NCBI GenBank assembly: GCA_035552155.1
Contig: DASZLX010000022.1
Span: 2,514 to 66,513 of the forward strand
DNA from: Verrucomicrobiia bacterium
GTDB lineage: Bacteria; Verrucomicrobiota; Verrucomicrobiia; Limisphaerales; DASXHY01
Length of the DNA: 64,000 bases
Direction: 5' to 3'
The notes under the pieces are model-generated. The model was not told where the DNA came from. It did no database searches and saw nothing but the letters and a program-made list of their open reading frames with translations. Positions 15,216-49,178 of the stretch are shown here, piece after piece (position 1 is the stretch's first letter; each line of letters opens with the position of its first letter). The position numbers were made by a program, and so were the translations under genes.

Positions 15216-15269
15216 GCCAATGGCCGACTTTCATTCATTGGCGATGGAGCCAACGGCCGGGATTGATCC
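15216..15269 (-). repeat. tRNA-Thr-derived scar: 25-nt copy of the tRNA 3' end plus a collapsed acceptor-stem remnant (att-like site)
   Basis: 15245-15269 TGGAGCCAACGGCCGGGATTGATCC matches 49104-49128 TGGAGCCAATGGCCGGGATTGAACC at 23 of 25 positions, in the same orientation. 15216-15226 GCCAATGGCCG is identical to 49108-49118. CATTGGC at 15236-15242 equals the acceptor 5' strand. Confidence 0.65.
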
Positions 15270-15570
15270 ACCCCATCCCTCAGTCGGGCTTTTTACACTC
15301 GAATTTCCTCGTTGTTTAGCATCTTTTGCCGAACAAAACAAGTTCGCTCGTTTATCGCTAATTCGTGCTCGTTCAACGCTCGCTTACTGAAGATTTCACT
15401 GAAGCCTCCCCGCGGTTCATTATCCGCTCGGGTCGGTCCGATTGTTTGTGCATAGCCTTAGGTTGCCCCCTCTTTTAAACCACGCTCAATGGAGCCGTCG
15501 TTAATACTTCGTTCGCGTTTGCCGGATCTTTCATTCATGAGTTAGTTGCAACAGAACCGCGAAGCAGCTT

Positions 15571-15605
15571 TGTTCAAAATTCTTCGCCGAATAGAATTGC
15601 AAGAC
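15571..15605 (+). promoter_or_regulatory. Copy 1 of a conserved 35-bp upstream element (TGTTCAA-N4-CTTCGCCGAA-N-AGAATTGCAAGAC)
   Basis: The sequence TGTTCAAAATTCTTCGCCGAATAGAATTGCAAGAC lies 128 nt upstream of the prepilin-like gene, in the gene's orientation. Confidence 0.5.
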
Positions 15606-15733
15606 TGTCGCTCGCCATCATGCGAAATTTCTATCATGAAGCACGACTGCGACAACAGCATCGTTGCACCGGCAACCGCCGGTCTGCGGCCCAGGCCACC
15701 CATTGATTCACAACCCCCTGTTTCAGCCATCGA

Positions 15734-16657
15734 ATGTTCACGCGACCGAAATCCGAGATAAATAATTCAACGCCGATTTATTTTTTTCGTTCCGAAAACC
15801 CCTTCCCGGCGTTGGGAAACAGCGCGTTCACCTTGATTGAATTGCTCGTTGTCATTGCCATTATCGCGATTCTGGCGGCGGTATTGTTGCCGGCCCTCGC
15901 CAAGGCCAAGCTGCGGGCCATGGGTGCGGATTGCATGAGCAATCAAAAGCAACTCGCCCTGGCCTGGATGTTGTATGCGGACGATAACGGCGGCAATATT
16001 GTCAATTTCGACACTGTTAAAAATGCCGCCGGTGATACGCCTTGGCGCTATGGCAATCCGCCACCGGCAATACCAACACTGCCGCCGGGCGCGGATCTTC
16101 AAACAAAAGCGACTCTCTTGCTTCAGGCCGCATACCAGCAGGGAGCCCTTTATCAATATGCCGCAAATGCGAACGTGCTTCACTGCCCGGCGGATGCCCG
16201 GTCGAGAAATCCGGTCGTTATCTCGCCGGCCACACCGCCTGGAACGTTCGCTTACGGCAGCTACTCGGGCGCCGGCGGCCTGAACGGTGTCATTTATGGG
16301 CCGGATAGTGCCATCACGAAACAGAGCGCGATCATGCATCCAACAGATCGATTCCTGTGGGTGGAGGAGAACGACCCGCGTGGCGAGAACCAAAGTTCAT
16401 GGGTCATGAAGCCGGGCACCCGGCCCACTTTCGCCGGCGCAGCTTTTGTGGATTCAGTGGCTTCCTGGCATGGGTACAACAGCACATTCAGTTGGGCGGA
16501 TGGCCACGCCGAAAGCCACCGATGGATAGACGGCACCACTATCAAGTACGCCCTGAACATGGATCCCAACAAATACTCCTCACCTCCGACAATCACCGAC
16601 TGCCCTGACGATATCACTTTCCTGGCCACGGATTACGCCTGTCAACAGAACCCTTAA
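15734..16657 (+). CDS. Prepilin-type N-terminal cleavage/methylation domain protein, HX9DG family (type II secretion pseudopilin-like)
   Basis: AFTLIELLVVIAIIAILAAVLLPALAKAK class-III signal, and a C-terminal WHGYNSTFSWADGH (H-X9-DG) motif. Confidence 0.8.
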   Translation: MFTRPKSEINNSTPIYFFRSENPFPALGNSAFTLIELLVVIAIIAILAAVLLPALAKAKLRAMGADCMSNQKQLALAWMLYADDNGGNIVNFDTVKNAAGDTPWRYGNPPPAIPTLPPGADLQTKATLLLQAAYQQGALYQYAANANVLHCPADARSRNPVVISPATPPGTFAYGSYSGAGGLNGVIYGPDSAITKQSAIMHPTDRFLWVEENDPRGENQSSWVMKPGTRPTFAGAAFVDSVASWHGYNSTFSWADGHAESHRWIDGTTIKYALNMDPNKYSSPPTITDCPDDITFLATDYACQQNP

Positions 16658-16691
16658 CGTTCGATTTCCAACACCACAAAACCAGCCTCCA

Positions 16692-19643
16692 ATGAAAAAA
16701 GCAAATACACCTCGATCTTTGAATGTGTGGAGCGTCAGCTTGCTCGTACTTGTGCTGATGGGCGTTTCCAATGCTCAAGCGGCGGATTATCAAAGCACCG
16801 TTCTGAACGACACGCCCTTGGCTTATTATCCGTTGAATCTGGATGTCGACACTGGCGCGATCGCCACTGATTTATCGGGCAATAACAATCCCGGCTACTA
16901 CACCAATATTTTTTCAGGCTTTAACAATGCCGTGGGTCCGTCGCCTTATATCACCAATGCGATAAATTTCGATGGCTTGAGCGAATTTGTGGATCTGGGA
17001 AATGGCAGCAATCCCGGACTGTTAAACTTTAGCGGTCCGATCACGATGGAAGCCTGGGTGCAACCAGCTAATCCCAGCCAAAACCTCGGCGACATTCTGG
17101 CCAAAGGCTACTCCCCCACAAATGGAGACGATGAAATTGCACTGCGCCTGAACAGCAGCCGATTCGAGGGTGTTACGTTCAGTGACGCTCGCGGAACGCA
17201 GGGTGCCGTGGGTGGCGTTCCCACCACCGATTGGCAGTACGTTGTCTCCACTTATGACGGCACCAATTGGGACACTTACGTGAACGGACTGCTGGTCGGC
17301 CAAAATAGTGATACCGTCGGTGCAATTAATTTTCCCATTCAATGGCGGATCGGTTCGGGGAGCGATGCGGGTGCGAACCGTTTATTCGCCGGAAATTTGA
17401 GCCAGGTCGCTCTCTATAATCACTCCCTCACTTCCGCGCAGGTCGTCACGCACTACCTCACGGGCGAATACGGCCTGGACGCCAGCACGACGCCGCCCAT
17501 TATCGCCATGGAACCACAATCACAATCGAATTTCATCGGCAGTTCCGTCACTTTCAGCGTCAGTGTCCTGAGCGCATTGCCGACGACGAACCAATGGTTC
17601 AAAGGCAGCAACCCTCTCCTGGGCCAGACCAATGCGACGTTGACATTGACGAACCTTCAGGCCAGCGACGAGGCAAATTACAGCGTCATCGTCGGCAACA
17701 GCAATGGCACGACCAACAGCACTTCAGCCGCATTCACTTTATTGGCTTCCGGAAATTCGCTGCAATGGAGCAGCGCTGACGTAGGCAACAACGGCACGTG
17801 GGATGTTGCGTCCTCGGCGAATTGGATCGATCTCGCGAATAGCCAGCAAACCGTCTTCAATAACGCGGATCAAGTATTGTTTGATGATACAGTTGATGCT
17901 CCGACCGCGGTCACAATTGCTTCAACCGTTTTACCGAGCACCATCACGGTCAATTCGAGCACGAACAATTATACCTTTTCCAGTTCAGGTGCCATCAGCG
18001 GCGGCACAAGCCTGGTTAAAAAAGGGTCGAGCACTTTGACCATCGTCGATCCGGCCAATTTTACGGGCCCGGTGGCAATTAGCGGCGGGACGATTTACGC
18101 GGGCAACAACTCATTCAGGAGCGTGGCATCAGTTACCGTCACCAACAATGCAACCCTGGATTTTGCGGGTGGCACTTATAACAATCTGCCGATCCTTGTT
18201 TCCGGCACCGGTGTGAATGGATTGGGAGCGCTTTTCAACAGCTTTGATGATTTCCCCAGCGAAACGTTGGCCATTACTCTGGCAGGTGACACGGTTTTTG
18301 GCGGCACCAATCGATGGGACTTGTTCGGTTCCATCACCGGGCCGCACAAAATCACTGTCAATTGGAGCGACACCGCCGATGGCAACTACGGCGAATGGAA
18401 CACAATAAACATCGCGACCAACGTCGGTGATATCGAGCTGGCCAACGGCAAGCTTGGCATCAAAAATATGGGGCCGACGTTCGGGAATCCGTCAGCCAAT
18501 TTCATCGTTGATTCCGGAACTGAATTGGATTTTTGGTCGGGCGATGCCGGTTATGCGAGGAATTTTCACGTGTTGAACAACGGCGTGATGCAGATCCTGG
18601 CCGGTTTCACCGATTTCAATGGAAGTCTTACGCTGGAAAACGGAGCTCGCTTCAATGCCTACGGCGCCAGCGGCAATCCCACTGAATCCATCAACGGCGC
18701 CATCACGTTGAATGGCGTCGCGCACATTGTGCTGGGCGACGGCAACTTTTCTTTCACGAACGTCATCAGCGGTCCCGGTGGTTTCGTTTGGGACGCGTAC
18801 AATCATAGCATGATTTTCCAAGCCGCGAACACCTATGCCGGCCCGACTATCATTGCTCAAGGAATGGCCGTGGCATTGAGTGGCAACGGTTCAATCTCCC
18901 ACAGCACACCGATTTTCTTCGGCGGCAGTGATTCGACATCGGTTCATTTCGACGTCTCTGGCCGCGCGGACCAAACGCTGACGCTGGCAAGCGGCCAAAC
19001 GCTGGGCGGTATCGGAGCAATAACAGGAAATCTTGTTGCGTCCGGCGGTTCGATAATCGCACCAGGGGGCACCAATACCACTATTGGAATCACGGTGGGA
19101 GCGAACCCCACCGGCACAATTTCGGTTTCGGGCAACGTCACCCTGGGCGGCACAACCACCATCAAGCTGGACGGTTCTGGTTCGAACGACGTAGTGCAAG
19201 CGGGCGGCAGTATTACCTACGGCGGTACATTGAACCTCGTGAATATCAGTGGCGCGCCTTATTCGGCGGGCGACACCTTCCAGATTTTCAGCGCGTCCAG
19301 TTTCTCGAGTTCCTTTACTCAGGGCATCAACCCGCCAAATCCCGGCGCAGGTCTCGCTTGGGACACCACGCAACTCAACGCGGGCAATATCTCAGTGGTC
19401 ACCGGCACCAGCCAGCCGGTGCTTGGCAACGTGTCTGTCTCCGGTGGAAACATTATTTTCAGCGGATCAAATGGGCCGGCGGGAAGCAATTACGTTGTGC
19501 TGACGTCAACGAACCTCACGACGCCGCTCGCGAATTGGACGCCGGTTTTAACCAACACTTTTGATAGCAACGGTAACTTTCACGTCACGAACGCCATTAA
19601 TCCGGCGGCGCCGCGTGGCTTTTACTTGTTGCAAGTACCATAA
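16692..19643 (+). CDS. Giant secreted LamG / Ig-like / autotransporter-associated beta-strand repeat (PATR) protein
   Basis: Signal peptide, then a LamG block (MEAWVQP...TYVNGLLVG...FAGNLSQVALYN) and an Ig-like module (NATLTLTNLQASDEANYSVIV). PATR-type repeats are present (GTWDV..ANW, LVKKGSSTLTI, GGTIYAGNN). The C-terminus ends in RGFYLLQVP. Confidence 0.8.
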   Translation: MKKANTPRSLNVWSVSLLVLVLMGVSNAQAADYQSTVLNDTPLAYYPLNLDVDTGAIATDLSGNNNPGYYTNIFSGFNNAVGPSPYITNAINFDGLSEFVDLGNGSNPGLLNFSGPITMEAWVQPANPSQNLGDILAKGYSPTNGDDEIALRLNSSRFEGVTFSDARGTQGAVGGVPTTDWQYVVSTYDGTNWDTYVNGLLVGQNSDTVGAINFPIQWRIGSGSDAGANRLFAGNLSQVALYNHSLTSAQVVTHYLTGEYGLDASTTPPIIAMEPQSQSNFIGSSVTFSVSVLSALPTTNQWFKGSNPLLGQTNATLTLTNLQASDEANYSVIVGNSNGTTNSTSAAFTLLASGNSLQWSSADVGNNGTWDVASSANWIDLANSQQTVFNNADQVLFDDTVDAPTAVTIASTVLPSTITVNSSTNNYTFSSSGAISGGTSLVKKGSSTLTIVDPANFTGPVAISGGTIYAGNNSFRSVASVTVTNNATLDFAGGTYNNLPILVSGTGVNGLGALFNSFDDFPSETLAITLAGDTVFGGTNRWDLFGSITGPHKITVNWSDTADGNYGEWNTINIATNVGDIELANGKLGIKNMGPTFGNPSANFIVDSGTELDFWSGDAGYARNFHVLNNGVMQILAGFTDFNGSLTLENGARFNAYGASGNPTESINGAITLNGVAHIVLGDGNFSFTNVISGPGGFVWDAYNHSMIFQAANTYAGPTIIAQGMAVALSGNGSISHSTPIFFGGSDSTSVHFDVSGRADQTLTLASGQTLGGIGAITGNLVASGGSIIAPGGTNTTIGITVGANPTGTISVSGNVTLGGTTTIKLDGSGSNDVVQAGGSITYGGTLNLVNISGAPYSAGDTFQIFSASSFSSSFTQGINPPNPGAGLAWDTTQLNAGNISVVTGTSQPVLGNVSVSGGNIIFSGSNGPAGSNYVVLTSTNLTTPLANWTPVLTNTFDSNGNFHVTNAINPAAPRGFYLLQVP

Positions 19644-19673
19644 CAAGGGCGAAAGAGTTCATTTCGGAATTGC

Positions 19674-20375
19674 ATGAGAATAGTCCTCATCGTGTTCTCG
19701 TTTGCCGCGTTGCTGCTGGCCGCGGCTCACGCCGGGCCGGCTTATCCGCCCGCTGCCGGCCACGAATCGATTGAATGGTGCGACATCTGGGTTTCGCACG
19801 CCAACGAAACCAACCTGCCGCGCGTCCTGCTCATTGGAGATTCTATCACGCGCGATTATTATCCGGGAGTGGAAAAGAGTTTGGAGGGCAAGGCTTACGT
19901 AACACGCCTTGCCACCTCGCGATTTGCCGGCGATCCGGTGCTGCTACAGGAAATCGCGCTTGTTCTGGATAATACCAAATTCGACATCATCCACTTCAAC
20001 AACGGCATGCACGGCTGGCAGCATACGGAGGAGGAATACCGAAAAGCGTTTCCCAATCTCGTAAAGACCATTCGCGTCCAGGCCCCGCACGCAAAATTAA
20101 TCTGGGCTACGACCACTCCGCTAAAAGCCGCCCAACCGCACAGCCCAACCGACCCTTCGGACGACCGGATCGCAGCACGTAATGCCATCGGCCTCGCAGC
20201 CATCCAAGGACAGAATATTGCTGTCGATGATTTGAATGCCCTCGTGCGCGGCCATCCCGAATACCACAGCGACAACGTCCATTTCAATTCACAGGGCATC
20301 CAACTCGAGGCGCAGCAAGTGGCCGCCAGCATCGAGCCGCTTCTGAATCATCAAATCACCGAGGTTCATCGATAA
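19674..20375 (+). CDS. SGNH/GDSL-family hydrolase, secreted
   Basis: Block I VLLIGDSITRDY, block III HFNNGMHG and block V DNVHFN, with an N-terminal signal peptide. Confidence 0.75.
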   Translation: MRIVLIVFSFAALLLAAAHAGPAYPPAAGHESIEWCDIWVSHANETNLPRVLLIGDSITRDYYPGVEKSLEGKAYVTRLATSRFAGDPVLLQEIALVLDNTKFDIIHFNNGMHGWQHTEEEYRKAFPNLVKTIRVQAPHAKLIWATTTPLKAAQPHSPTDPSDDRIAARNAIGLAAIQGQNIAVDDLNALVRGHPEYHSDNVHFNSQGIQLEAQQVAASIEPLLNHQITEVHR

Positions 20376-21162
20376 CCGGATTTGTCAGCGTTCCGATCTT
20401 TTCAATTTCGATGCTGACGGAATCACCGGGCTGCAGCCAGCGCGGAGGCTTCTGCGCCATGCCAACGCCGTGCGGGGTACCGGTCAAAATCACCGTGCCT
20501 GGCAATAACGTGGTGCTGCCGCTCAGAAATTCAATCAACGCCGACACATTGAAAATCATATCGTTCGTATTCCAGTCCTGCATGACCCGGCCACTGACGA
20601 TGGTACGAATCCCCAGAGAGTTTGGGTTTGGAATCTCATCGGCCGTCACCAGCGCGGGCCCAAGCGGACTGAAAGTGTCGAATGTCTTCCCCCGCGACCA
20701 TTGGCCACCGCCGCGTTTGATCTGCCAATCCCGTGCGCTGACGTCATTGCAGCACGTGTAACCCAAAACATAATTCAGCGCGTCGGCGCGATTCACGTTT
20801 TTGCAGCGCCGCCCGATGACAACAGCCAGTTCGCATTCATAATCCACTTCGTCGCTCCGCAAATGCCTCGGAATCTGGATGGGTTCGCCGGGATGCTGCA
20901 GCGTATTGACGCCCTTGAAGAAAACAACCGGATATTCCGGAAAACGCGCGCCGGTTTCCTCCGCATGCTTCCGGTAATTCAGCCCAATGCAGATAATTCC
21001 TGTCGGTTCAATAGGTGCCAGGACCTGCGAAACCTCGGCTTTTTCGGAGGTGGCGCGCAAGCCACTGTAAATGTCTCCCTCAAGTTTCAATGCGAGGCCG
21101 TCTGGCTGCTTGGAGGCGTAGTGAATTCCTCCCAAATTGTCCCGATAACGAATGATTTTCAT
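20356..21162 (-). CDS. Fumarylacetoacetate hydrolase (FAH) family protein; candidate 2,4-diketo-3-deoxy-L-fuconate hydrolase
   Basis: FAH-family motifs GLNYRKHAEE, DYECELAVVIG and GTPHGVG. The ATG at 21162 (MKIIRY...) lies 2 nt after the upstream stop. The function is assigned from operon context. Confidence 0.8.
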   Translation of the reverse strand: MKIIRYRDNLGGIHYASKQPDGLALKLEGDIYSGLRATSEKAEVSQVLAPIEPTGIICIGLNYRKHAEETGARFPEYPVVFFKGVNTLQHPGEPIQIPRHLRSDEVDYECELAVVIGRRCKNVNRADALNYVLGYTCCNDVSARDWQIKRGGGQWSRGKTFDTFSPLGPALVTADEIPNPNSLGIRTIVSGRVMQDWNTNDMIFNVSALIEFLSGSTTLLPGTVILTGTPHGVGMAQKPPRWLQPGDSVSIEIEKIGTLTNPVIDEPR

Positions 21163-21164
21163 AA

Positions 21165-21905
21165 TTATTTTCCAGCCGTCCAACCGCCGTCGATCATCAA
21201 AGTGCTTCCTGTGATCATCGAGCTTTCGTCGCACGCCAGATAAAGCGCCGCGGCGGCTATTTCCTCCGGTTTGGCCATTCTGCCATTTAATTGGGTCGAA
21301 GCCATATCACGATAGGCAGCCTCCGGGTCCGGATATTCCTTCAATCGCTCCAGCACGAATGGCGTTTCCACGCGTCCCGGGCAAATGCAATTGAAACGGA
21401 CTCCCGTGTGCGAATGATCCAATGCAAGCGCCTTGGTCATGCCGACAACAGCGAACTTCGTCGTCGTGTAGGCCAAACGTTCCCGGACCGCAACCACACC
21501 CGCAACGGACGCCATGTTGATAACGCTTCCGTTCCCACGCTCGATCATTCCGGAAGCGAATGCTTTGCAACAGTTGAAGATGCCGCCCACATTCACGGCG
21601 TACAAACGCTCCAAATCGGCCGCCGTCGTTGTAATCAGCGAACCTACATGTCCAATGCCCGCGACGTTCGCGAGTACATTGAGCGTTCCAATTGTCTGCG
21701 CAGCGCGCGAGCACTCCTCTCCTCTGCTTACATCCAATTTGTAAAATACGCCGCCAATCCGTTCCGCCACCTTGGGGCCGTTGGCCTCATCGCGGTCCGC
21801 GACAAACACTTTCGCTCCCGCCGCTGCGAAAGTTTCCGCAATGGCCGCGCCGATTCCAGACGCCGCGCCGGTAACAAACGCTGTTTTATCTTTCAGGCTA
21901 AACAC
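21165..21905 (-). CDS. SDR family oxidoreductase; candidate 2-keto-3-deoxy-L-fuconate dehydrogenase
   Basis: TGAASGIGAAIA cofactor motif and 246-aa SDR architecture. It overlaps the upstream lactonase gene by 8 nt. Confidence 0.8.
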   Translation of the reverse strand: MFSLKDKTAFVTGAASGIGAAIAETFAAAGAKVFVADRDEANGPKVAERIGGVFYKLDVSRGEECSRAAQTIGTLNVLANVAGIGHVGSLITTTAADLERLYAVNVGGIFNCCKAFASGMIERGNGSVINMASVAGVVAVRERLAYTTTKFAVVGMTKALALDHSHTGVRFNCICPGRVETPFVLERLKEYPDPEAAYRDMASTQLNGRMAKPEEIAAAALYLACDESSMITGSTLMIDGGWTAGK

Positions 21906-22746
21906 GATAGATCCTTTCCGCGTTGGTTTGGAAAAGTTGTTTCCTTTCGGTTTCAGAAATGCGATCGACCAGTTTCATGACCGTTTCGACCCAGACTTCG
22001 TACGTTGCCGCGAGCGTGACGACCGGCCAATCGCTGCCAAATAATACGCGACTCGGCCCAAAACACTCCAGCGCGTGTTCGAAATAGGGCGCGAGATCCG
22101 CCGGCGTCCAACGGCTCCCATCAGCCTCTGTGATCAAACCGGAGATTTTACAGACCACGTTCGGCATCTCGGCTAGGGTTCGCAGATCGTGCGCCCACGG
22201 CTCGAAACTTCCGTTGCGCACGGCTGGTTTGCCGAAATGATCGAGAACAAACGTCACTTCCGGCGCCTGCCGGACGAGTTTGAGGACGATCGGCAATTGA
22301 CTCGCGCGCACGCACAAATCAAATGTAAAATTAAATCCCGGAAGCAATTTCAGACCTTCCAGCAGACCCGGCCGATTCCAAAAATCATCGTTCTCGGCCT
22401 GTAGATTGCGTCTGACCCCCTTAACCAGCGGCCGGCCTGCAAGTGATTCGAGATCGGCGCGAGCCGCGAGGCCCTTTTCCAGGGACGCGTGGGCAACAAT
22501 ACCTTTCAAACGCGGTTCCTCCGTCACGAGTGTCGCAACCCAATCCACTTCCGCCGCACATTGAGAAGCATCGCAACCGCATTCCACGAAAATAAATTTT
22601 TGCACCGGCGCCGAATCGCCGGCGGCCTTTAAGTCCGCCGGACACAGGGGACGGTTTAGTGCCGGGAGAGCGTCCAGCCAGGCGTAGCGGAATTTGCCCG
22701 GGTTCCACAAATGCACATGGGAATCCACGATGACAGGCGCCTTCAT
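21898..22746 (-). CDS. Amidohydrolase-2 family protein; candidate L-fucono-1,5-lactonase
   Basis: N-terminal IVDSHVHLW metal-binding motif, about 280 aa. The 4-nt overlap with the dehydratase gene indicates an operon. Confidence 0.8.
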   Translation of the reverse strand: MKAPVIVDSHVHLWNPGKFRYAWLDALPALNRPLCPADLKAAGDSAPVQKFIFVECGCDASQCAAEVDWVATLVTEEPRLKGIVAHASLEKGLAARADLESLAGRPLVKGVRRNLQAENDDFWNRPGLLEGLKLLPGFNFTFDLCVRASQLPIVLKLVRQAPEVTFVLDHFGKPAVRNGSFEPWAHDLRTLAEMPNVVCKISGLITEADGSRWTPADLAPYFEHALECFGPSRVLFGSDWPVVTLAATYEVWVETVMKLVDRISETERKQLFQTNAERIYRV

Positions 22747-23969
22747 TCGTGTTTCAAATCACAGCTTGCCCCGGCTTCCTGGGGCGGGCGGTAAAAACCG
22801 CCGGAGACATCGCACGGATGGACAAAATGCTGTCGCAGGTGCGGAATGTGTTCGAGGAACACGACCTCATGACCAAGCGCTATGTGATTGAATAAGACGA
22901 GATGCTGGTGCAACTGCCCCATGTCGCCGACGTGAGGCACGACCGGCACTCCAAACTTCCGGCAGAGCAAACTGACCGCAATGAATTCACTCACTCCCGC
23001 CACCCGAACGGCATCCACCTGGATGAAGCCCGCACACTTCGCCTGCAAATAATTTTTGAAAACGACGCGGTTCGGCACGTGCTCGCCCAGGGCAAGTTTT
23101 GTCGGCGCGATGGCGTCGGCGAGCGTCTTATGGCCAATCACATCGTCTGGATGCGTCGGTTCCTCGATCCAAAACGGATCGATGGCGCGGAGACGTTGGC
23201 AAATATCGAGAGCCTGCGGCAAAGTCCATTGCTGATTTGCATCCACCATCACGCGCGCCTTGTTGCCGGCCACCTCGCGCACAATTGCCGCTCGGCGCAA
23301 ATCCCGTTCAGCATCGCGCGACCCCACTTTCAGTTTCATTGCCGCAAACCCGTTCCCCAGCGCGCGTCGGCAATTCTCCCGTACCTGCTCGTCGTCGTAA
23401 TTGAACCAGCCCACTGAGGTGTCATAGCCGGGATAACCGATTTTCAAAATATTTTCACGGGAGGCGCGTGTCGATTGGTGCCGCCGCAGGATATCTGCAG
23501 CCTGGGCCAAGTTTAATTCGTCTTCGAGGTAGGAAAGGTCGAGCGTCGCGACGATCTCCTCCGGGGTGAGCCCGAGCAGCAATCTCCAAAGAGGCACATC
23601 CAGAGTTTTCGCCCAAAGATCCCAGCAGGCGTTGGTCACGGAGGCGAGCGCCAGTTGCACGATACCTTTATGGGGACCGAGCCAGCGGAATTGTTGCTCA
23701 TCGGCAAGCGAGCGTTGAACGGAGCCGAATTGCGCCATAATACTTTCGATGGGTTTGCCCACCAACCGTTCGGCGTAAAACCGGGCTGCCTCGCAAACCA
23801 ATTGGTTCCCTTCACCCAGCGTAAACGCGAGGCCGACCCCAGTGCGCCCGCGGTCGTCGTGCAATTCCGTCACGGCATAGGAGTAAATCGGGTCCCGGTG
23901 AATGGCGTCGCTGCCGTGGCCCTGGCCCAGAGGATAACGAACGTCGCGAGTCGAGATGCTTTGAATCAT
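22743..23969 (-). CDS. fucD: Enolase-superfamily (mandelate racemase/muconate lactonizing) L-fuconate dehydratase
   Basis: The N-terminus TRDVRYPLGQGHGSDAIHRDPIYSYAV resembles L-fuconate dehydratases. The metal-ligand region MVDANQQW...IEEP is present. Confidence 0.8.
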   Translation of the reverse strand: MIQSISTRDVRYPLGQGHGSDAIHRDPIYSYAVTELHDDRGRTGVGLAFTLGEGNQLVCEAARFYAERLVGKPIESIMAQFGSVQRSLADEQQFRWLGPHKGIVQLALASVTNACWDLWAKTLDVPLWRLLLGLTPEEIVATLDLSYLEDELNLAQAADILRRHQSTRASRENILKIGYPGYDTSVGWFNYDDEQVRENCRRALGNGFAAMKLKVGSRDAERDLRRAAIVREVAGNKARVMVDANQQWTLPQALDICQRLRAIDPFWIEEPTHPDDVIGHKTLADAIAPTKLALGEHVPNRVVFKNYLQAKCAGFIQVDAVRVAGVSEFIAVSLLCRKFGVPVVPHVGDMGQLHQHLVLFNHIALGHEVVFLEHIPHLRQHFVHPCDVSGGFYRPPQEAGASCDLKHE

Positions 23970-23976
23970 GGGAGAA

Positions 23977-25157: not shown

Positions 25158-25161
25158 GCAG

Positions 25162-39043: not shown

Positions 39044-39052
39044 CGGTGAGAA

Positions 39053-39783: not shown

Positions 39784-39786
39784 TTT

Positions 39787-40725: not shown

Positions 40726-41946
40726 TTAGAACTGGTATATGATGTTAAGAGCGACCGAAACGGCATTCTTGTTCGACGGTTCGCCGACTACCGTGCCGCC
40801 AAATGGCCGGTCGCCGGTTAGAGAATGATCCCATCGGAATTCGCCGCGGGTAATCACGTTTTTCCAAAGCGAATAGCCCACGGTCAATGTTTCCGAGATC
40901 AGTTGATCGCCGTGTCCGTTGGAAACCAGTCCGTCAAACACACCGGCGCTGCCGGTCGCGTAGTCAATGCGATTCGCGAAGGTCCACTTGTCCATGGTGT
41001 ACATCACATACAGCGCCGTCGCGTTGGCGTAGTCGCTCTTGCTGGTTTGGCCGTATGTATAATCATAGGCTGCGCCCAATGACAATCCGGTCACAGGCAA
41101 TGGAAGGGTGCCGCCGACGTAAATATTACCTTGGTTAAAGCGCGTGCCGCCCGCCGGAACGCCGGTCGAGGCAATGGTCGTCGCGTCCAGCTGATGATCG
41201 CCGACGGTGTATCCAGCGGATAACGTCGCGCCTTTAGCGAATCCAAAACTTTCCGGTGCGGTGAATGTGGCCATCGCCAGATAGGCTTTTTTGGATTCGA
41301 TGGATTGCCGCGCGTTCACTTCGTTATTGAATCCCGCCGCGTTGCCAATGCCGGCCATCAGACTGACTTCATCGTTAACCTTATAATTTGCGGAAATGCC
41401 CGTGTGCGCCGAAGACTCAATGAAGAATCCGTATGAACGGCTCCAGTTTGGATCCTTGTAGGTATCGTACGCCTCGTAGCCATTGTAGGTGCCGAATTGG
41501 CCGACATGAAGCTCAATGCCATTGCCCACCGGCACACGCAGGTTAATGTAGGCTTCATTGAAGGAAAAATCCGTTCCAATGGGTCCCCCGCTGCCGGCAG
41601 TCGCGATGCCGGTTCCACGTTTGGCCGCGCCAGGTCCCATCAACATTTGCACGTGATAGCCTGCTGACCAGCCGCTCGTATCCAGCGGCTTGTCGAGCGT
41701 GAGGCTCACCACGTTCAAATTAAACCCATCCTGCACGTCCGAGCCGTCATAGGTGCGTCCGGGCATGTTGGCATCGCCGGTGCCGAATTTCCAAACGGCG
41801 GTGGTATCGACGTAGCCACTGAGAGTTGTTGACGAGAGCGCGGTCAAAACGGTGCTGGGCGCGGGCGCGTCATCCGCAAGCATTACCGCTGGGAGACTGA
41901 CAAGACCGGCACTCAACAGCATTTTGGTCCACTTACTTATTTTCAT
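40726..41946 (-). CDS. Outer-membrane beta-barrel porin
   Basis: Signal peptide MKISKWTKMLLSAGLVSLPAVMLA, alternating beta-strand pattern rich in G/Y/T, and a C-terminal ...ALNIIYQF with terminal Phe. The start at 41946 is preferred. Confidence 0.7.
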   Translation of the reverse strand: MKISKWTKMLLSAGLVSLPAVMLADDAPAPSTVLTALSSTTLSGYVDTTAVWKFGTGDANMPGRTYDGSDVQDGFNLNVVSLTLDKPLDTSGWSAGYHVQMLMGPGAAKRGTGIATAGSGGPIGTDFSFNEAYINLRVPVGNGIELHVGQFGTYNGYEAYDTYKDPNWSRSYGFFIESSAHTGISANYKVNDEVSLMAGIGNAAGFNNEVNARQSIESKKAYLAMATFTAPESFGFAKGATLSAGYTVGDHQLDATTIASTGVPAGGTRFNQGNIYVGGTLPLPVTGLSLGAAYDYTYGQTSKSDYANATALYVMYTMDKWTFANRIDYATGSAGVFDGLVSNGHGDQLISETLTVGYSLWKNVITRGEFRWDHSLTGDRPFGGTVVGEPSNKNAVSVALNIIYQF

Positions 41947-42011
41947 AATGTGTTTTATAGGTTTCACTTTTGGGTCGTACGCCTTTGTGCGCACTTTGGT
42001 TCAGGAGCGCC

Positions 42012-42533: not shown

Positions 42534-42641
42534 GAAATGCCGGCGTCAACATGGCCGCATGCATGGCGGCGTGTCGCGACAAAGAATCGAACCATCAGGC
42601 AGAAGAAAACCGAAACTGAACCCACACTCGATATAACCGAT

Positions 42642-43937
42642 ATGAAAAAGACGCTGTCCTTCCTAAAAAAACCATTTCTCGCGTTCAGCCTCGCGGCCGC
42701 GCTGGCCGCTTCCAGCTACGCGGCCGACACAATCAAGGTCGGCATCCTGCATTCGCTCAGCGGCACCATGGCCATCAGTGAAACCTCTTTGCGCGACGTG
42801 TTGCTCTTCACGTTCGACGAGATCAACAAGGCCGGCGGCATCAAAGTGGGCGACAAGAGTTATATGATCGAGCCGGTGGTGGTGGACGGCGCTTCCAACT
42901 GGCCGCTCTTTGCGGAAAAAGCCAAACAACTGCTCGAGGAGGACAAGGTCGCGGTGGTCTTTGGCTGCTGGACCTCGGTGAGCCGCAAGTCGGTGCTGCC
43001 GGTTTTTGAAAAGGACAACGGGCTGCTCTTCTACCCGGTGCAATATGAAGGTGAGGAGCTATCCAAGAACATCTTCTATACCGCCGAAGCTGTGAACCAG
43101 CAGGCGACGCCCGCCGTGGATTATCTGCTCGCCCAGGGTAAAAAGAAATTCTACCTCATCGGCACGGACTACGTGTATCCACAGACCACCAATTTGATCC
43201 TCTACAAATATCTGCTCCTGCACGGCATCAAGATGGAGGACATCGGTGGCGGCTTCCGCAAAGATGATACCGGCAAGGTTATTTCCGCTGGCAAGTATAC
43301 GCCATTCGGCCACACTGATTATCAGCAGATCGTGGCGGAGATTAAGCAGTTTGCGGCCAGCGGTGACGCTTGCGTGCTCAACACCATCAATGGCGATTCC
43401 AACGTGCCTTTCTTCAAGGAAATCGCCGCGGCAGGTTTGACGGCTTCGGATTGTCCGGTGGTTTCCTTCAGCCTCGCGGAAGATGAACTTCGCTCGCTGC
43501 CGACCAAGGACCTCGTGGGTGAGCTCGGTTGCTGGAAGTATTTCATGTCGATCAATTCGCCGGAGAACAAGACGTTCCTGAAAAACTGGAATAGCTGGCT
43601 GAAGGACGAAAGCTATCCCGGCGTCGTGAAGGAAAAACGCGCGGTGGACAGCCCGATGGTCCTTTCCTACGACGGCGTTTACTTGTGGAAAGAAGCTGTT
43701 GAAAAAGCCGGCACTTTTGATGTGGACCAGGTCCGCACCGCCCTCGAGTCCGGCGAAATCAGTTTTGAAGGACCCGGCGGAAAAACCACCATGCAGAAAA
43801 ATCATCATACGATCAGCAACGTTTACATCGGCGAAACCCGCGCCAATGGCCAGTTCAAGATTCTCAAGGAATTCAACAACGTGGCCGGCGAACCTTTCAT
43901 CCTGAAGGGGCTTGACGATAAACTGGCGGCGAAATGA
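42642..43937 (+). CDS. urtA: Urea ABC transporter substrate-binding protein UrtA
   Basis: Signal peptide, then [17 protein letters not shown] and [17 protein letters not shown], which are typical of UrtA. Confidence 0.9.
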
Positions 43938-43992
43938 GGACGCCCGTGATTTGGAGGTGTTGAAGGGAAATTAGAGGGATGCAGAAAAAGGG

Positions 43993-45825
43993 GTGGAGTT
44001 GGGGGACTCCACCCCTTTGTTTTCAAATATGAATCGTGCATTGAAATGGACCAATGGCCCGAGCAGGAGAGCCGCGTTGCAAAAACGCGGATTGACGTGG
44101 GCTGTTCTGTTCGCGCTTTTGTTTTGCCGTTCGGTTTCCGCTGCTCCCGCGCCCGTTGATGATGTCGCGGTCCGCGAGCAATTGGTTAAAACCCTCTTGA
44201 GCGAAGGCGAGGAGCAACAGACCAATCTTAACGCGCTTGCCGATACTGGCTCTCGGCTTGTCCGCGACGTGCTCACCGCGTGGACGCGCGATGGCGTTTA
44301 TGTTTATGAAGCGCCAGACAAAACCAAAATTCCTGTCCTGCTCGAGGAGCAGACTGATGCCGACGGAAAGGCCCGCGCCATTCGCATTGCTGACGGGCAA
44401 TTTTTGAAGGACGACAAGGGGAAGGAGTTGCGTTTCGCCAACATGGATCTGAATACCGCCGATACGGATATGCGATTGCGCGGCGCCATTCAACAGACGC
44501 TTAATGCATTGGCGCTTTCCGACCCAAACCCGGATGCGCGGCGTTCTGCAATTTTGAAATTAGGCAATTCGGGCAAGGAGAAAAATATCGCGCTGCTGCA
44601 GGGGCGATTGGAAAAAGAGACCGACGCGGAAGTTAAGAAATCGCTGAACGAGGCGATTGCGTTGCTGAATCTCGGCAGTTCCGATAGCAGTGTGCAGATT
44701 TCGGCCATCAAAAAGCTGGCTGCGCTGAATGCCATAGGAAGCCTCGATAATCTTAAGCGACTGGCCGCCGACGCGAAGACTGCGCCCTCGGTGCTCAAAG
44801 AAACGAAACTGGCGATTTCCTCCATTGAACAGCACATTCAATGGGTCAATTTCTTTGGCACCATTTTTCGCGGGCTAAGCCTCGGGTCCATTCTCCTCGT
44901 GGTTGCTCTTGGCCTCGCCATTACATTCGGCCTGATGGGCGTCATCAACATGGCCCACGGCGAAATGATCGCAGTAGGAGCCTACACCTGTTACGTCGTG
45001 CAGAATATTTTTGGCACGGGTTTCGGCTTCACCATCAATCTCCCGTTCACCTTCTTCGGCCATCATTTGGGCTTCGGCATGCATATTCCCGGTTTGAACG
45101 CCACCGGCTGGTTTTGTGAGAGTTATTTTCTGTTCGCACTGCCGCTCAGTTTTCTTACAGCGGCCCTGGCAGGCCTGATCATCGAGCGCAGCGTGATTCG
45201 TTTTCTGTATCGCCGCCCCCTGGAGTCCCTACTGGCCACCTGGGGCATCTCGCTCATCATGCAGCAATGCTTCCGCATGGTGTTTGGCGCGAACAATGTT
45301 CAGGTCAATTCACCTTCCTGGCTGCAGGGCCATTTTTCGCTGAGCGACGTTCTCTTTGGATACAATCGTGTTTTCGTCATCGGATTCGCGATCGTGATTG
45401 TCATCGGCACATGGATGTTACTGACGAAAACTCCGCTGGGCCTGCTCATTCGCGCAGTAATGCAAAACCGCAACATGGCCTCGTGCGTTGGCGTGCGCAC
45501 CGATCGTGTGAACATGATGACATTCGCGTTCGGTTCCGGGCTGGCGGGTTTGGCCGGTTCGTTCCTGTCGCAAATCGGCAATGTCGGCCCAAGCATGGGG
45601 CAGGACCATATAGTGAATGCCTTCATGACGGTCGTGGTCGGCGGCGTGGGCAGCATCGTCGGCACGGTTTACTCCGCAATAGGCGTCGGCACCGGTGACC
45701 AGGTCTTGCAACAAACCACCGGCTCACCCGTGGCGGGAAAAATTGTGATGCTCGTCTTGATCATTCTCTTTTTGCAATGGAAACCCGGCGGCTTGTTCGC
45801 CATCCGTTCACGGAATCTCGATTAA
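43993..45825 (+). CDS. urtB: Urea ABC transporter permease UrtB with an N-terminal extension of about 290 aa (signal peptide plus HEAT-like repeats)
   Basis: The C-terminal half is a branched-chain-type permease (INMAHGEMIAVGAY). The N-terminal half contains DPNPDARRSAILKLGNSG...EVKKSLNEAIALL repeats. An alternative start lies at 44029. Confidence 0.85.
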   Translation: MELGDSTPLFSNMNRALKWTNGPSRRAALQKRGLTWAVLFALLFCRSVSAAPAPVDDVAVREQLVKTLLSEGEEQQTNLNALADTGSRLVRDVLTAWTRDGVYVYEAPDKTKIPVLLEEQTDADGKARAIRIADGQFLKDDKGKELRFANMDLNTADTDMRLRGAIQQTLNALALSDPNPDARRSAILKLGNSGKEKNIALLQGRLEKETDAEVKKSLNEAIALLNLGSSDSSVQISAIKKLAALNAIGSLDNLKRLAADAKTAPSVLKETKLAISSIEQHIQWVNFFGTIFRGLSLGSILLVVALGLAITFGLMGVINMAHGEMIAVGAYTCYVVQNIFGTGFGFTINLPFTFFGHHLGFGMHIPGLNATGWFCESYFLFALPLSFLTAALAGLIIERSVIRFLYRRPLESLLATWGISLIMQQCFRMVFGANNVQVNSPSWLQGHFSLSDVLFGYNRVFVIGFAIVIVIGTWMLLTKTPLGLLIRAVMQNRNMASCVGVRTDRVNMMTFAFGSGLAGLAGSFLSQIGNVGPSMGQDHIVNAFMTVVVGGVGSIVGTVYSAIGVGTGDQVLQQTTGSPVAGKIVMLVLIILFLQWKPGGLFAIRSRNLD

Positions 45826-45826
45826 C

Positions 45827-46987
45827 ATGCGCCGCACAGCAACGAAGCTCGAATCGTGGAGCGTGGCGGTCACAGCATTCGTCATGATCGTGGTGTTGCC
45901 GGCGCTCAACGCCACGCCCGCCGGCAGCTTTCTGCATGTCAGCAATTTCACGATCAATCTCTACGGCAAATATCTCTGCTACGGCCTGCTCGCCATCAGC
46001 GTCGATTTGCTTTGGGGCTATACCGGCCTGCTGAGCCTGGGACAGGCGCTGTTCTTCACTCTCGGCGGTTACATGATGGGGATGTACCTGATGCGGATGA
46101 TTGGCGACCTCGGCCAATATCATCAGCCGATTCCAGATTTCCTCGTGTTTCTAGGCTGGAGCACGCTTCCGGCATTCTGGAAACCTTTTGGCAGTTTTGC
46201 GTTTGCCTTTCTAATGGCGATGTTGCTGCCGGGAACGCTGGCGCTCGTTTTCGGTTTTCTTGCCTTTCGCTCGCGCATCCGCGGAGTTTATTTTGCCATT
46301 CTCACACAAGCCCTGACTTATGCGGCAATGCTGCTCTTTTTTCGCAACAGCCTGTTGATGGGCGGTAATAACGGATTCACTGATTTCAAATTTATTTTCG
46401 GCTACGACTTGCGCGAACCATCCACGCAACGTGGACTTTATATGGTGACGGCGCTGACCGTGCTGATCGCATTTCTAGTTTGCCGCTGGTTGAGCCGGAC
46501 AAAATTCGGGCTCGTGCAGCAGGCCATCCGCGATAGCGAAAACCGCGTGCTGTTCAGCGGATACGCCGCCCGAAATTACAAACTCTTTGTGTTCGTGCTC
46601 GCGGCGCTCATCGGCTCCATTGGCGGGATGCTGTTTGTGCCGCAAGTCGGCATCATCAACCCAAGCGAAATGGGACCGGATAAATCGCTGGAAGCCGTGG
46701 TATGGGTGGCGGTTGGAGGGCGCGGCACGTTGCTCGGCCCGATCCTCGGTGCCTTTGGAGTGAATGCCTTCAAGAGTTGGGCCACCCGCGCCTATCCCGA
46801 TCTCTGGCAGATTCTGCTCGGCGCGCTCTTCGTGCTCGTAACTCTATTCATGCCGAAAGGCCTGGTCGGTTTGCCCGAACAATTGCGCGGCATCAAAAAG
46901 CGTTTCGACGCGCGCCGGAAGAAAATTAAAGATCAAGCCGCCGCTTCCGTAAGCGTTCCCGCCGAGGAACTGGCAAAGACCAAATGA
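45827..46987 (+). CDS. urtC: Urea ABC transporter permease UrtC
   Basis: LivM-type permease motifs (DLLWGYTGLLSLGQALFF) and position in the urt operon. Confidence 0.9.
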   Translation: MRRTATKLESWSVAVTAFVMIVVLPALNATPAGSFLHVSNFTINLYGKYLCYGLLAISVDLLWGYTGLLSLGQALFFTLGGYMMGMYLMRMIGDLGQYHQPIPDFLVFLGWSTLPAFWKPFGSFAFAFLMAMLLPGTLALVFGFLAFRSRIRGVYFAILTQALTYAAMLLFFRNSLLMGGNNGFTDFKFIFGYDLREPSTQRGLYMVTALTVLIAFLVCRWLSRTKFGLVQQAIRDSENRVLFSGYAARNYKLFVFVLAALIGSIGGMLFVPQVGIINPSEMGPDKSLEAVVWVAVGGRGTLLGPILGAFGVNAFKSWATRAYPDLWQILLGALFVLVTLFMPKGLVGLPEQLRGIKKRFDARRKKIKDQAAASVSVPAEELAKTK

Positions 46988-47751
46988 GCGCCGCTCCCCG
47001 TCAATTTGTTTTGATGCTCGAAGACGTGAATAAAGCCTTCGATGGTTTCAAGGCCATTTCGAATCTCACGCTTTACATGGACGAAGGGGAATTACGAACC
47101 ATCATCGGCCCAAACGGCGCGGGAAAAAGCACGATGCTGGACCTTATTACTGGTCGTACGAAGCCGGACAAAGGTAAAATTGAGTTCGGCGTGAACACCG
47201 ACCTTACCCGACTGAACGAATATCAAATCAACCGCCTCGGCATTAGCCGGAAATTTCAAACACCGTCCGTTTATATCGACCACACAGTTTTCGAAAACAT
47301 CTGGCTTTCGCTCAAAGGCGGCCGAGCCGTGTGGACCACTATTTTTGCGCGGCTATCCTCCGACCAGCGCGATCGCATCCACGATGTGCTGAACACGGTG
47401 GGCCTTTCGGACAAAGCAAGTTGGAAAGCCGGTGCGTTGAGCCACGGCCAGAAGCAGTGGCTCGAGATCGGCATGTTGCTCGCGCAGGATCCAAAGTTAT
47501 TGCTCGTCGACGAACCCGCCGCCGGCATGACCGACGAAGAGACGCACAAAACCGGCGAACTGCTCCTCAGCCTCGAAGGCAAACACAGCATCGTGGTCAT
47601 CGAACACGACATGACCTTCGTCCGCCAGATCGCCCGCAAAGTCACGGTGTTGCACCAAGGGACCGTTTTGTGCGAAGGAACCGTGGACGAGGTGCAGAAT
47701 GATGAACGGGTGATTGAGGTGTATTTGGGGAGGAAAAAGAAAGCCGCATGA
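46984..47751 (+). CDS. urtD: Urea ABC transporter ATP-binding protein UrtD
   Basis: Walker A GPNGAGKST, signature LSHGQKQWLEIGMLL and Walker B LLLVDEPAAGM. It overlaps urtC by 4 nt. Confidence 0.9.
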   Translation: MSAAPRQFVLMLEDVNKAFDGFKAISNLTLYMDEGELRTIIGPNGAGKSTMLDLITGRTKPDKGKIEFGVNTDLTRLNEYQINRLGISRKFQTPSVYIDHTVFENIWLSLKGGRAVWTTIFARLSSDQRDRIHDVLNTVGLSDKASWKAGALSHGQKQWLEIGMLLAQDPKLLLVDEPAAGMTDEETHKTGELLLSLEGKHSIVVIEHDMTFVRQIARKVTVLHQGTVLCEGTVDEVQNDERVIEVYLGRKKKAA

Positions 47752-47896
47752 AAGTTTTAAGTTCCAGGTTTCAAGTTCCAAGAAAGCTCCAAGCTGCAAG
47801 CTTCAAATCGGAACAGTTGCGATTCGAGGGATTATTTGTTGCTTGGAATTTGGAACGTTTTTGGAACTTGGAATTTGGAACTTGGAATTTTTCCAC
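47752..47896. repeat. 145-bp intergenic palindromic element built from heptamer repeats (GTTCCAA-type left arm, six TTGGAAY units in the right arm)
   Basis: Right arm: TTGGAAT TTGGAAC gttt TTGGAAC TTGGAAT TTGGAAC TTGGAAT (47843-47888). Left arm: GTTCCAG GTTTCAA GTTCCAA (47761-47781). There is an inner imperfect hairpin CTTCAAATCG/CGATTCGAGG. Confidence 0.7.
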
Positions 47897-48592
47897 ATGC
47901 TGACTCTTTCCAACATCTCAGTCTCCTACGACGGTTCGCGCATCCTGCGCGGCGTGAACCTCACCGTACCCGAGCGCAGTCTCGTGTGCCTGATGGGACG
48001 CAACGGTGTCGGCAAAACTACGACGTTAAAATCCATCGTTGGCCTCGCCAAAACGGATGGCGGTTCCATTACACTCGCAGGAACAGAATTGAACGGTTTA
48101 AAACCTGACCAACGTGCGCGGCACGGCCTTGGTTACGTCCCGCAAGGCCGCGACATTTTTCCGCACCTCACCGTTTGGGAAAACCTCAAGATCAGCCTCG
48201 TCGTCCATAAAGCCAAAGCCAACGGCCAGGTGGATCGAGTGCTGGAATTGTTTCCGGTGCTGAAGGAAATGTTGCAGCGCAAAGGCGGGGTGCTGAGTGG
48301 CGGCCAACAACAACAACTGGCCATCGCGCGCGCATTGCTGACCGATCCGAAAATATTGATTCTCGACGAGCCCACGGAAGGCATCCAGCCCAATATCATC
48401 GATCAAATCGGCGAGACGCTCTTGAAAATCAAAGCCGAGGGCAAAATCAGCATTTTGCTCGTGGAACAATATCTCGATTTTTGCGTCAGCGTTGGCGATA
48501 GCTTTTACATCATGGACCGCGGCGCAGTCGTGGCCGGGGGACCGATTAAAAACCTCAACGATCCAGATGTGCGACGGTATTTGACGGTCTGA
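47897..48592 (+). CDS. urtE: Urea ABC transporter ATP-binding protein UrtE
   Basis: Walker A GRNGVGKTT, signature LSGGQQQQLAIARAL and Walker B ILILDEPTEG. The ATG at 47897 is used; the upstream part of the ORF-track ORF is a translation of the repeat element. Confidence 0.9.
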   Translation: MLTLSNISVSYDGSRILRGVNLTVPERSLVCLMGRNGVGKTTTLKSIVGLAKTDGGSITLAGTELNGLKPDQRARHGLGYVPQGRDIFPHLTVWENLKISLVVHKAKANGQVDRVLELFPVLKEMLQRKGGVLSGGQQQQLAIARALLTDPKILILDEPTEGIQPNIIDQIGETLLKIKAEGKISILLVEQYLDFCVSVGDSFYIMDRGAVVAGGPIKNLNDPDVRRYLTV

Positions 48593-48930
48593 TTTCGGTA
48601 AAAGCGCCAGTGCCGCTGGTTCCGGAAAGGTTTGTGGATCGCTTCCTTATCCTGGAGATATTCGTGGAAACCGTCCCCACATTAAGGACGCTCAAGAATT
48701 GATCCGCCTTCGTTTCCGTAAGTTTGAGACCGCGAATCGCATCAAACGGCTTTTCCGCCACCGTTCCTTTGGTGGCGTCCTGCTTGCCCTCCCCATCACC
48801 CACGCCCAAGTCCGAGAATTAAATCCCGAGTCGGAACCTTTCAAGTAAGCGCGCGCAATGTCCAAATTCAGCATCCTTGAAAATAGTACGTGCCCCATCC
48901 TCGCTTAAACAATCGGTAACGCTGTTTCAT
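48555..48930 (-). pseudogene. Tyrosine-integrase N-terminal relic, frameshifted and truncated
   Basis: Three frames together give MKQRYRLFKRGWGTYYFQ / LNLDIARAYLKGSDSGFNSRTWAWVM / GKQDATKGTVAEKPFDAIRGLKLTETKADQFLSVLNVGTVSTN. This resembles the N-terminal (arm/SAM-like) part of phage-type integrases. No catalytic domain is present. It lies 174 nt from the 3' end of tRNA-Thr. Confidence 0.5.
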
Positions 48931-49103
48931 TTCATCACTCACGGTTGTGAGCGTAAAACAGCCCGAAAGTTTGTGTTAGCGAGCAGTGGCGGAGCGGTCG
49001 GCGACCAATGCCGAACGATGCCAGGGCAGCTAAAACATTGAAACTTTCAATGAAGGTAGACAAACCATGCTCCCTAAGTCCCTGCAAGACAGTTGCAAAG
49101 AAG

Positions 49104-49178
49104 TGGAGCCAATGGCCGGGATTGAACCGGCGACCGACGGTTTACGAAACCGTTGCTCTACCACTGAGCTACATTGGC
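49104..49178 (-). tRNA. tRNA-Thr (anticodon CGU), CCA encoded
   Basis: Hand-folded cloverleaf: GCCAATG-TA-GCTC-AGTGGTA-GAGC-A-ACGGT-TTCGTAA-ACCGT-CGGTC-GCCGG-TTCAATC-CCGGC-CATTGGC-T-CCA. Confidence 0.9.

Follow-up and report, generated by a model that had tools for sequence, protein, structure and literature searches.

Why does a decayed integrase gene lie beside a tRNA-Thr(CGU) gene in a Verrucomicrobiia bacterium, and why does a partial copy of the tRNA 3' end stand 34 kb away in the same orientation? The two sites enclose operons for sugar-acid catabolism, ureohydrolase and urease, and urea transport in the 64,000-nt stretch of DNA that we analysed (the window). A sequence-only reading of the window had proposed that all 33.9 kb between them entered, or was remodelled, by site-specific integration at the tRNA 3' end. 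The homology that we found in the integrase and in a flanking arm upholds the integration part of this proposal: by sequence comparison, both ends are cognate, correctly oriented scars of one element family. The entire 33.9 kb may also have travelled as cargo. On balance, we consider it moderately probable that positions 15245-49128 are what is left of a single integrative genomic island, 34 kb or more in length, which inserted once and whose integrase gene (int) then decayed.

The two ends of the interval

Four loci from other genomes served for comparison. At two of them, L079 (chromosome OY969416.1) and L098 (a metagenome-assembled genome, MAG, of Candidatus Angelobacter), an integrase open reading frame (ORF) lies directly downstream of a tRNA-Thr gene; the other two, L101 and L041, are displaced fragments of the tRNA 3' end. 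L101 shares chromosome and strand with L079 and lies 66.5 kb downstream of its tRNA and integrase, the interval occupying 2,540,158-2,606,644 of OY969416.1; L041 comes from the same MAG as L098.

The tRNA-Thr(CGU) gene is the sole tRNA gene of the window according to ARAGORN, with which Rfam concurs, and it is 100% identical to the tRNA of L079, L098, and a further contig, L205, described below. Its last 25 nt, the core of the left attachment site (attL), read TGGAGCCAATGGCCGGGATTGAACC on the plus strand and recur with two mismatches on the same strand at the distal end (attR; Table 1). The sequence-only reading had reported the tRNA gene and its 23/25 direct repeat at these very positions, and both are present as it described. 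The distal copy has an A at the T54 position and a G in the acceptor strand, and the two copies merge into the pattern GG[AT]TCAATCCCGGCC[AG]TTGGCT. None of 100 dinucleotide-preserving shuffles yielded any match to the 25-mer, and 0 are expected by chance. The fragment is in direct orientation relative to the tRNA at the opposite island end. Neither ARAGORN nor Rfam, run on the window, detected a tRNA 5' half beside it, and no further copy of fragment or arm was found elsewhere in the window, either with the 25-mer or by blastn and tblastx against the four loci.

On the tRNA-facing side of the repeat, as integration predicts, lies a 135-nt P' arm. It is homologous to the DNA on the inner side of the displaced copies L101 and L041, over 135 nt and no further in all three pairs; moreover, the fragments of the window, L101, and L041 all begin at the same tRNA position. 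The P' arm follows the pattern GGAAATTCGAG[TC]GTAAAA and bears repeated (A)ACGAGC motifs together with an inverted copy of CGGGCTTTTTACACTC. At the tRNA end, the non-coding P arm between the tRNA and the integrase start carries TCGGGCTGTTTTACGCTC, whose inverted copy is in the P' arm. An inverted motif, CGGGCT(G)TTTTACGCTC, joins P and P' arms in all three genomes; of 500 shuffles, 0-6 scored as high. The link between the arms is significant for this gapped motif only and not for shared exact k-mers. Pairwise identities among the three elements are 94.3, 90.8, and 94.3% in the P arm and 78.7, 75.4, and 78.1% in the P' arm. The elements are therefore about equidistant at both ends, and the two ends of the window fit one family member.

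That the repeat at 15.2 kb arose by chance, or belongs to an independently decayed tRNA gene unrelated to the integrase relic, is scarcely credible. Such an origin would suit the nearby tRNA-like hairpin and the two mismatches, of which one falls on the invariant T54, but the result of the shuffling, the lack of a 5' half, and above all the fragment start and 135-nt arm shared with L041 and L101 contradict it. Arm homology and orientation rule out both versions, and the independent decayed tRNA locus that the sequence-only reading had entertained is thereby refuted; we rejected attR as a chance match or dead tRNA on these grounds.

Next to attR is the collapsed second remnant that had also been pointed out, GCCAATGGCCG...CATTGGC, and its sequence is as stated. 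It folds into a 7-bp hairpin (GCCAATG / CATTGGC) and, 2 nt away from attR, repeats 11 nt of the tRNA 3' end without change of orientation; by our estimate, this has a chance of about 4e-4. It also contains the 5' acceptor strand, which an island targeting the 3' end should not duplicate, and it has no counterpart in L041 or L101. Possible origins are an earlier att scar, a tRNA copy with an internal deletion, and a templated quasi-palindrome.

At the tRNA end, three minus-strand frames from 48975 to 48555 resemble pieces of an integrase N-terminus, and in tblastn these pieces match the ORFs directly downstream of the tRNA in L079 and L098. Window positions 49178-48876, comprising the tRNA, the arm, and the integrase start (GTG at 48942 or ATG at 48930), are 96.4% identical to L098 and 94.4% to L079 by blastn. 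Past 48876, 94 nt are missing; the alignment then resumes at 80-83% identity, is interrupted by two more gaps (10 and 13 nt), and ends at 48656-48658. The relic previously placed at 48555-48930 is thus real, but its limits are not: homology spans 48942/48930 down to 48656 rather than to 48555. The intact homologues are 339-aa ORFs that match Pfam PF00589 (Phage_integrase) above the cut-off. The window relic is without the whole catalytic domain, and its stitched translation receives no Pfam match, the N-terminal domain having no Pfam model. An undeleted form, with the 94-nt and smaller segments present, occurs on a contig of another, unrelated soil run (X7). Judged by these alignments, the relic was broken by deletions and not by many substitutions, and the integrase of the window is dead.

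Both junctions, RCC1-attR-cargo and urtE-relic-tRNA, are spanned exactly by unitigs of the source sample at an even depth of about 10, and a 78.8-kb soil-metagenome contig from the Joint Genome Institute (JGI) is 100% identical over window positions 39324-62431. The arrangement is therefore no assembly artefact. No joint skipping the island occurred among the Logan contigs compared with the window, and the source unitigs represent the integrated form only.

An integrase family at tRNA-Thr(CGU)

A scan of species-representative genomes with the tRNA-Thr 3' end gave at least 119 loci; neither the window's own genome nor a close relative was among those listed. Among the matches listed, this 3' end occurs almost only in Verrucomicrobiota MAGs; 97 of the 120 pattern matches listed are in intact tRNA-Thr genes and 23 lie outside. 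The integrase family stands directly downstream of the tRNA-Thr 3' end at 31 of the 119 listed loci, and where checked, int starts about 165-180 nt past the tRNA on the same strand. All 19 full-length integrases (for example, L079:4321-5337) conserve HxxR, the second His, and the Tyr, and all 19 show LGGSQ[S/T]D without Arg in the box I region, as assigned by eye.

Beyond int and arms, the three islands have nothing in common. L079 and L098 are alike in tRNA, P arm, and int, with 89% identity over 1261 nt, but their similarity ends at the int stop codon; the arm is all that L101 and L041 have in common; and blastn and tblastx of the whole window against the four loci found no shared segment other than int and arms. 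Next to attR, OY969416.1 carries GH28, GH43 with a ricin domain, and a split alpha-L-fucosidase, whereas the Angelobacter MAG carries a 2-oxoacid dehydrogenase E1a/E1b/E2/E3 operon. (The fucosidase, at L101:3597-5286, consists of two ORFs of 242 and 307 aa and is probably frameshifted.) No transfer, excisionase, or replication gene was recognised directly after int or before attR at any of the four loci. By these comparisons, the family is an int-plus-arms module around variable, host-like metabolic cargo. With family cargo of this kind, neither the lack of mobility genes nor the host-like nature of the 34 kb is evidence against cargo status. In orientation and geometry, the interval in the window resembles the 66.5-kb interval from tRNA and integrase to fragment in OY969416.1.

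Other classes of displaced tRNA-Thr fragments exist in Verrucomicrobiota (L035, L043, L046, L055, L090, and L091; L016 and L078). One class is about 45 nt long and begins in the anticodon stem; another, found twice in one MAG, has A in place of T54 and shares an arm of its own (...TCGTAGCAGGGC[TA]TTGCG). Several integrase families appear, from these fragments, to use this tRNA-Thr.

The following course of events would account for the scars. The 339-aa tyrosine integrase would recombine a short attP core with the last 25-30 nt of tRNA-Thr(CGU). Integration would rebuild the tRNA at one end, giving attL followed by the P arm and int, and would push the old 3' end to the far end as attR, preceded by the 135-nt P' arm of the element. 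Everything between int and arms would be variable cargo, made up of ordinary metabolic operons both here and in the two other genomes. The sugar-acid, ureohydrolase/urease, and urt operons would have been inside the circular element at integration; the donor was probably a related verrucomicrobial, and the operons would then have been retained for their usefulness. Later, int would have lost three internal pieces and all sequence past about codon 135, up to 60 nt from the urtE stop codon. With its integrase broken, the island would be unable to excise and so be fixed in the chromosome.

Cargo, rearrangement, or mosaic

The genes between the scars are given in Table 1. A Pfam scan of ORFs of at least 100 aa across 15.2-49.1 kb bears out the gene content listed by the sequence-only reading. 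The seven genes of the sugar-acid operon encode an SSF symporter, a RhaM mutarotase, an SDR, an enolase-superfamily dehydratase, an amidohydrolase_2, a second SDR, and an FAH hydrolase; the probable start of urtE is at 47897. Conjugation genes (relaxase, coupling protein, type IV secretion), which would mark an integrative and conjugative element (ICE), are absent from this range by Pfam. Nor does the interval resemble a prophage: no phage domain is among the Pfam matches, and the core 25-mer has 0 matches in viral contigs. The 1-kb gap at 28.9-29.9 kb holds no recognisable remnant of a mobility gene. Homologues of flank and cargo bear names such as Verrucomicrobiota, Limisphaerales, and Pedosphaera. 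The description of the cargo as phylum-typical holds insofar as it is compatible with Verrucomicrobiota, and the urea module also occurs in relatives outside any island context.

Table 1. Features of the putative island and its ends, in window coordinates
Feature	Position	Strand	Basis
Second collapsed tRNA-Thr-like remnant, GCCAATG-N9-CGGCCATTGGC in tRNA sense	15216..15242	-	sequence
attR core, copy of tRNA 3' end from last two T-stem bases through CCA	15245..15269	-	23/25 match
P' arm, element-internal end adjoining attR	15270..15404	-	78.7% identical to L041, 75.4% to L101; L041 vs L101 78.1%
N-methyl (prepilin-type) protein, 983-aa LamG/Ig/PATR protein, GDSL/SGNH hydrolase	15734..20375	+	Pfam
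Seven-gene sugar-acid (L-fucose/L-rhamnose-type) catabolic operon	20356..26850	-	Pfam
AraC-family regulator	27104-28129	+	Pfam
PEP-CTERM protein	28234-28944	-	Pfam
Arginase-family ureohydrolase, NMT1-type ABC importer, 137-aa ORF, DsbD_2-like membrane protein, ureD-ureAB-ureC-ureF-ureG	29943..40515	+	Pfam
BBP2/OmpL-like porin, paired with urt as in relatives	40726..41994	-	Pfam
urtABCDE urea ABC transporter	42537..48592	+	Pfam; 80-85% nucleotide identity to L123, L210, L212
Junction, 59 nt, origin unassigned, between end of relatives' urtE homology (48596) and end of integrase homology	48597..48655	.	alignments
Tyrosine-integrase pseudogene, about first 135 of 339 codons	48656..48942	-	three-frame reading, tblastn, blastn vs L098 and L079
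P arm, element-derived non-coding DNA between tRNA 3' end and integrase start	48931..49103	-	94.3% identical to L098, 90.8% to L079
attL core, 3' 25 nt of tRNA	49104-49128	-	
tRNA-Thr(CGU), intact, CCA encoded	49104..49178	-	ARAGORN; Rfam RF00005, 72.7 bits

Two side observations concern this gene content. The non-coding segment 15455-15664, upstream of the N-methyl gene, recurs with about 98% identity in two unrelated soil runs (X3 and X4), whose contigs lack matches to the neighbouring sequence; it overlaps a 35-bp upstream element described in the sequence-only reading. Antisense inside ureC, at 37482-37774 on the minus strand, there is an Rfam match to 5_ureB_sRNA (92.8 bits), which may reflect only the conservation of the urease coding sequence behind this Helicobacter antisense RNA model.

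Several features of the locus weigh against its being a single island. The Pfam scan found no further mobility gene in the 34 kb. The bases just 3' of the attR core read TCGCC..., whereas CTTCT follows the CCA in L079, L098, L101, and the close relative Rel1. There is no clean empty site, the DNA downstream of the tRNA in Rel1 being different from the left flank of the window. No compositional signal accompanies the 15.2-kb boundary, in tetranucleotides or in GC content at third codon positions (GC3). Finally, the urea-related genes occur in four relatives in non-island contexts and in another order. The last three points require closer consideration.

Rel1 is a 126-kb JGI contig (L205, Ga0376694_0000123) with an 84%-identical orthologue of the tRNA-adjacent LamG/DUF2341 protein. 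It is collinear with the right flank of the window from TatD to the tRNA, at 80-84% nucleotide identity. Its tRNA-Thr is intact, and homology to the window ends 5 nt past the CCA (window 49099). Over the following 20 kb, Rel1 has genes for GH43, an esterase, GH38, GH92, a PQQ dehydrogenase, and other proteins absent from the window; this stretch contains no integrase relic, no urt, and no gene of the window's left flank. Since Rel1 differs past the tRNA and has neither relic nor cargo there, the site is variable and Rel1 lacks the island. The synteny comparison suggested by the sequence-only reading therefore came out in part as foreseen: relic and cargo are missing at the Rel1 tRNA, but this tRNA is not joined to the RCC1 flank.

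Other searches brought up nothing that bears on an empty site. No exact match to the window's thioredoxin or RCC1 protein was found, and none of the clusters with close UrtC or RCC1 relatives includes the Rel1 contig. The best RCC1 homologue on a long contig is 67% identical and in an unrelated context. Metagenome relatives reached through the nucleoside symporter, at no more than 80% identity, share the XylIso-GFO-symporter-GFO-3keto module and have no tRNA-Thr nearby. A LamG homologue in L122, 66% identical, has other surroundings and is probably a paralogue.

Rel1 also carries, at L205:3322-19765, a 16.2-kb low-GC element (0.49-0.51) in the 5' half of its tRNA-Thr(CGU) gene. The element is bounded by a 130-nt direct repeat of the region upstream of the tRNA plus tRNA nt 1-37, and it encodes two tyrosine integrases, an HTH_17 protein, a 777-aa ORF, cpYpsA, and a complete type I restriction-modification system. 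Together with the islands at the 3' end, this shows the same tRNA-Thr to be used on both sides by different elements.

As to composition, GC content stays near 0.55 throughout left flank and interior and climbs to 0.58-0.60 right of the tRNA. Mean GC3 is 0.626 in the left flank, 0.647 in the interior, and 0.723 in the right flank (interior vs left, p = 0.10; interior vs right, p = 2e-5; left vs right, p = 4e-4). Nearly all 38 genes left of the tRNA have a GC3 of 0.60-0.69 (UrtA, 0.717), and all 9 to the right (49324-63982) have 0.70-0.77. In tetranucleotide usage, the distance of the interior from the rest is unremarkable, at rank 25 of 64 circular shifts. The sole step is thus at the tRNA, position 49104. 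Of the contrast with the flanks that the sequence-only reading had proposed to look for, only the right-hand half materialised, in GC3, the interior being like the left flank. The step could mean that everything left of the tRNA was acquired, or it could separate accessory from housekeeping genes.

In the four contigs whose UrtC is about 90% identical to that of the window (L123, L210, L211, and L212), the order is BBP2 porin, urtABCDE, ureohydrolase, creatininase, GS-like gene, and NMT1 ABC; nearby genes encode, among others, a sigma-70 factor, thioredoxin, Rrf2, and ADH, with no tRNA or integrase present. Two window segments, 40643-48596 and 29577-34506, each show 80-85% nucleotide identity to these contigs, where the corresponding blocks are 176-288 nt apart. 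This divergence is about that of the right flank from Rel1 (80-84%). In the window the order is permuted to ureohydrolase-ABC block, urease, and porin-urt block, and the creatininase and GS-like genes are absent. One breakpoint lies just past urtE, within 60 nt of the truncated integrase. Permuted order and breakpoint would fit a chromosomal rearrangement as well. There are two readings: deletion may have removed the defunct int together with adjoining genes as far as the nearest one of use, or a rearrangement may have carried the block to the tRNA.

In another account, the metabolic genes belong to the native chromosome and have never been mobile, a translocation having placed them between the ends of a small, mostly deleted island. 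The cargo is lineage-typical, the module has core-like divergence in the non-island contexts of the relatives, and the interior has the composition of the left flank. We nevertheless think this account quite improbable. Keeping both arms in direct orientation around 34 kb demands at least two precise, non-inverting events; the same geometry, spanning tens of kb with metabolic genes, is also present in OY969416.1; and Rel1 has none of this DNA at its tRNA.

A composite or remodelled island, in which the scars are genuine and the 34 kb are a mosaic, is a stronger competitor, though still rather unlikely. Tandem integrations, deletions, or rearrangements would have fused the newest attL-int' to older material; part of the interval, such as the urea module, may be native and have moved in later, and an older island may make up the DNA to the left of 15.2 kb. 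Such a history would explain the second tRNA-like remnant 2 nt beyond attR, the coincidence of the integrase truncation with a synteny breakpoint in a urtE-ureohydrolase spacer that is conserved in four relatives, and the position of the GC3 step at the tRNA and not at attR. The absence of both interior and left flank within 20 kb downstream of the Rel1 tRNA, and of the Rel1 contig from every cluster with a close RCC1 or UrtC relative, points the same way. However, several extra events are required, the P- and P'-arm divergences agree with a single element, the window holds no additional copy of fragment or arm, and the GC3 difference could mirror housekeeping and accessory gene classes. These considerations lead us to prefer a single island over a mosaic.

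A wider proposal can be put forward tentatively. An undescribed and very widespread family of minimal islands, each with an integrase seemingly without Arg-I, two short arms, and no recognisable excisionase, transfer, or replication genes, might move 30-70-kb blocks of nutritional operons between soil Verrucomicrobiota by way of tRNA-Thr(CGU), with tandem accretion and at least 49 kb left of the tRNA horizontally acquired. If so, urea and guanidine nitrogen scavenging, the use of fucose and pectin, and 2-oxoacid dehydrogenases would be examples of its cargo. In the literature on Verrucomicrobia islands at tRNA-Thr, we found no description of this integrase family.

Comparison with known islands

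Large metabolic or symbiosis islands at tRNA 3' ends are exemplified by ICEMlSymR7A at tRNA-Phe and ICEclc at tRNA-Gly, both equipped with conjugation and excision modules. Like them, the window has tens of kb of catabolic or nutritional operons between attL and attR at the 3' end of a tRNA gene. Unlike them, it has no recognised transfer, excisionase, or replication genes, and the same is true of the ends at L079, L098, L101, and L041. As for the enzyme, tyrosine recombinases of the IntDOT type lack the first catalytic arginine; IntDOT itself is part of a conjugative transposon and is not known to target a tRNA gene. The integrases of the present family are similar in having no box I Arg, by an assignment made by eye and not by structure-based alignment, while keeping HxxR, His, and Tyr.

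The location of the urease, urea uptake, and ureohydrolase module and of the fucose-type operon suggests that, in this uncultured soil lineage of Verrucomicrobiota, these genes are sited in a hot spot of horizontal exchange. The operons may have been acquired as one block, which bears on how nitrogen-scavenging traits spread in soil. The att arms and core are now concrete for an integrase family present at about a quarter of the sampled loci with this tRNA-Thr 3' end, and they could help to recover islands of host-like composition with a dead integrase, which some island callers miss. An automated caller demanding an intact int would probably miss the island in the window.

The closest parallel is with the tRNA gene (tDNA)-targeting genomic islands of the Islander catalogue, in which the integrase lies by the regenerated tRNA gene and the displaced 3' fragment at the far end (PMC4383910). 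The locus described here differs from these islands in that its integrase is a pseudogene, its fragment has two mismatches, and its interior does not deviate in composition from the left flank (PMC4383910). It shares with them the intact target tRNA, a tyrosine integrase adjoining it, if only as a pseudogene, a 3' fragment in direct orientation at the far end, and variable cargo in between (PMC4383910). In kind, it is a textbook remnant of a tRNA-associated island, an ordinary degenerate tDNA island.

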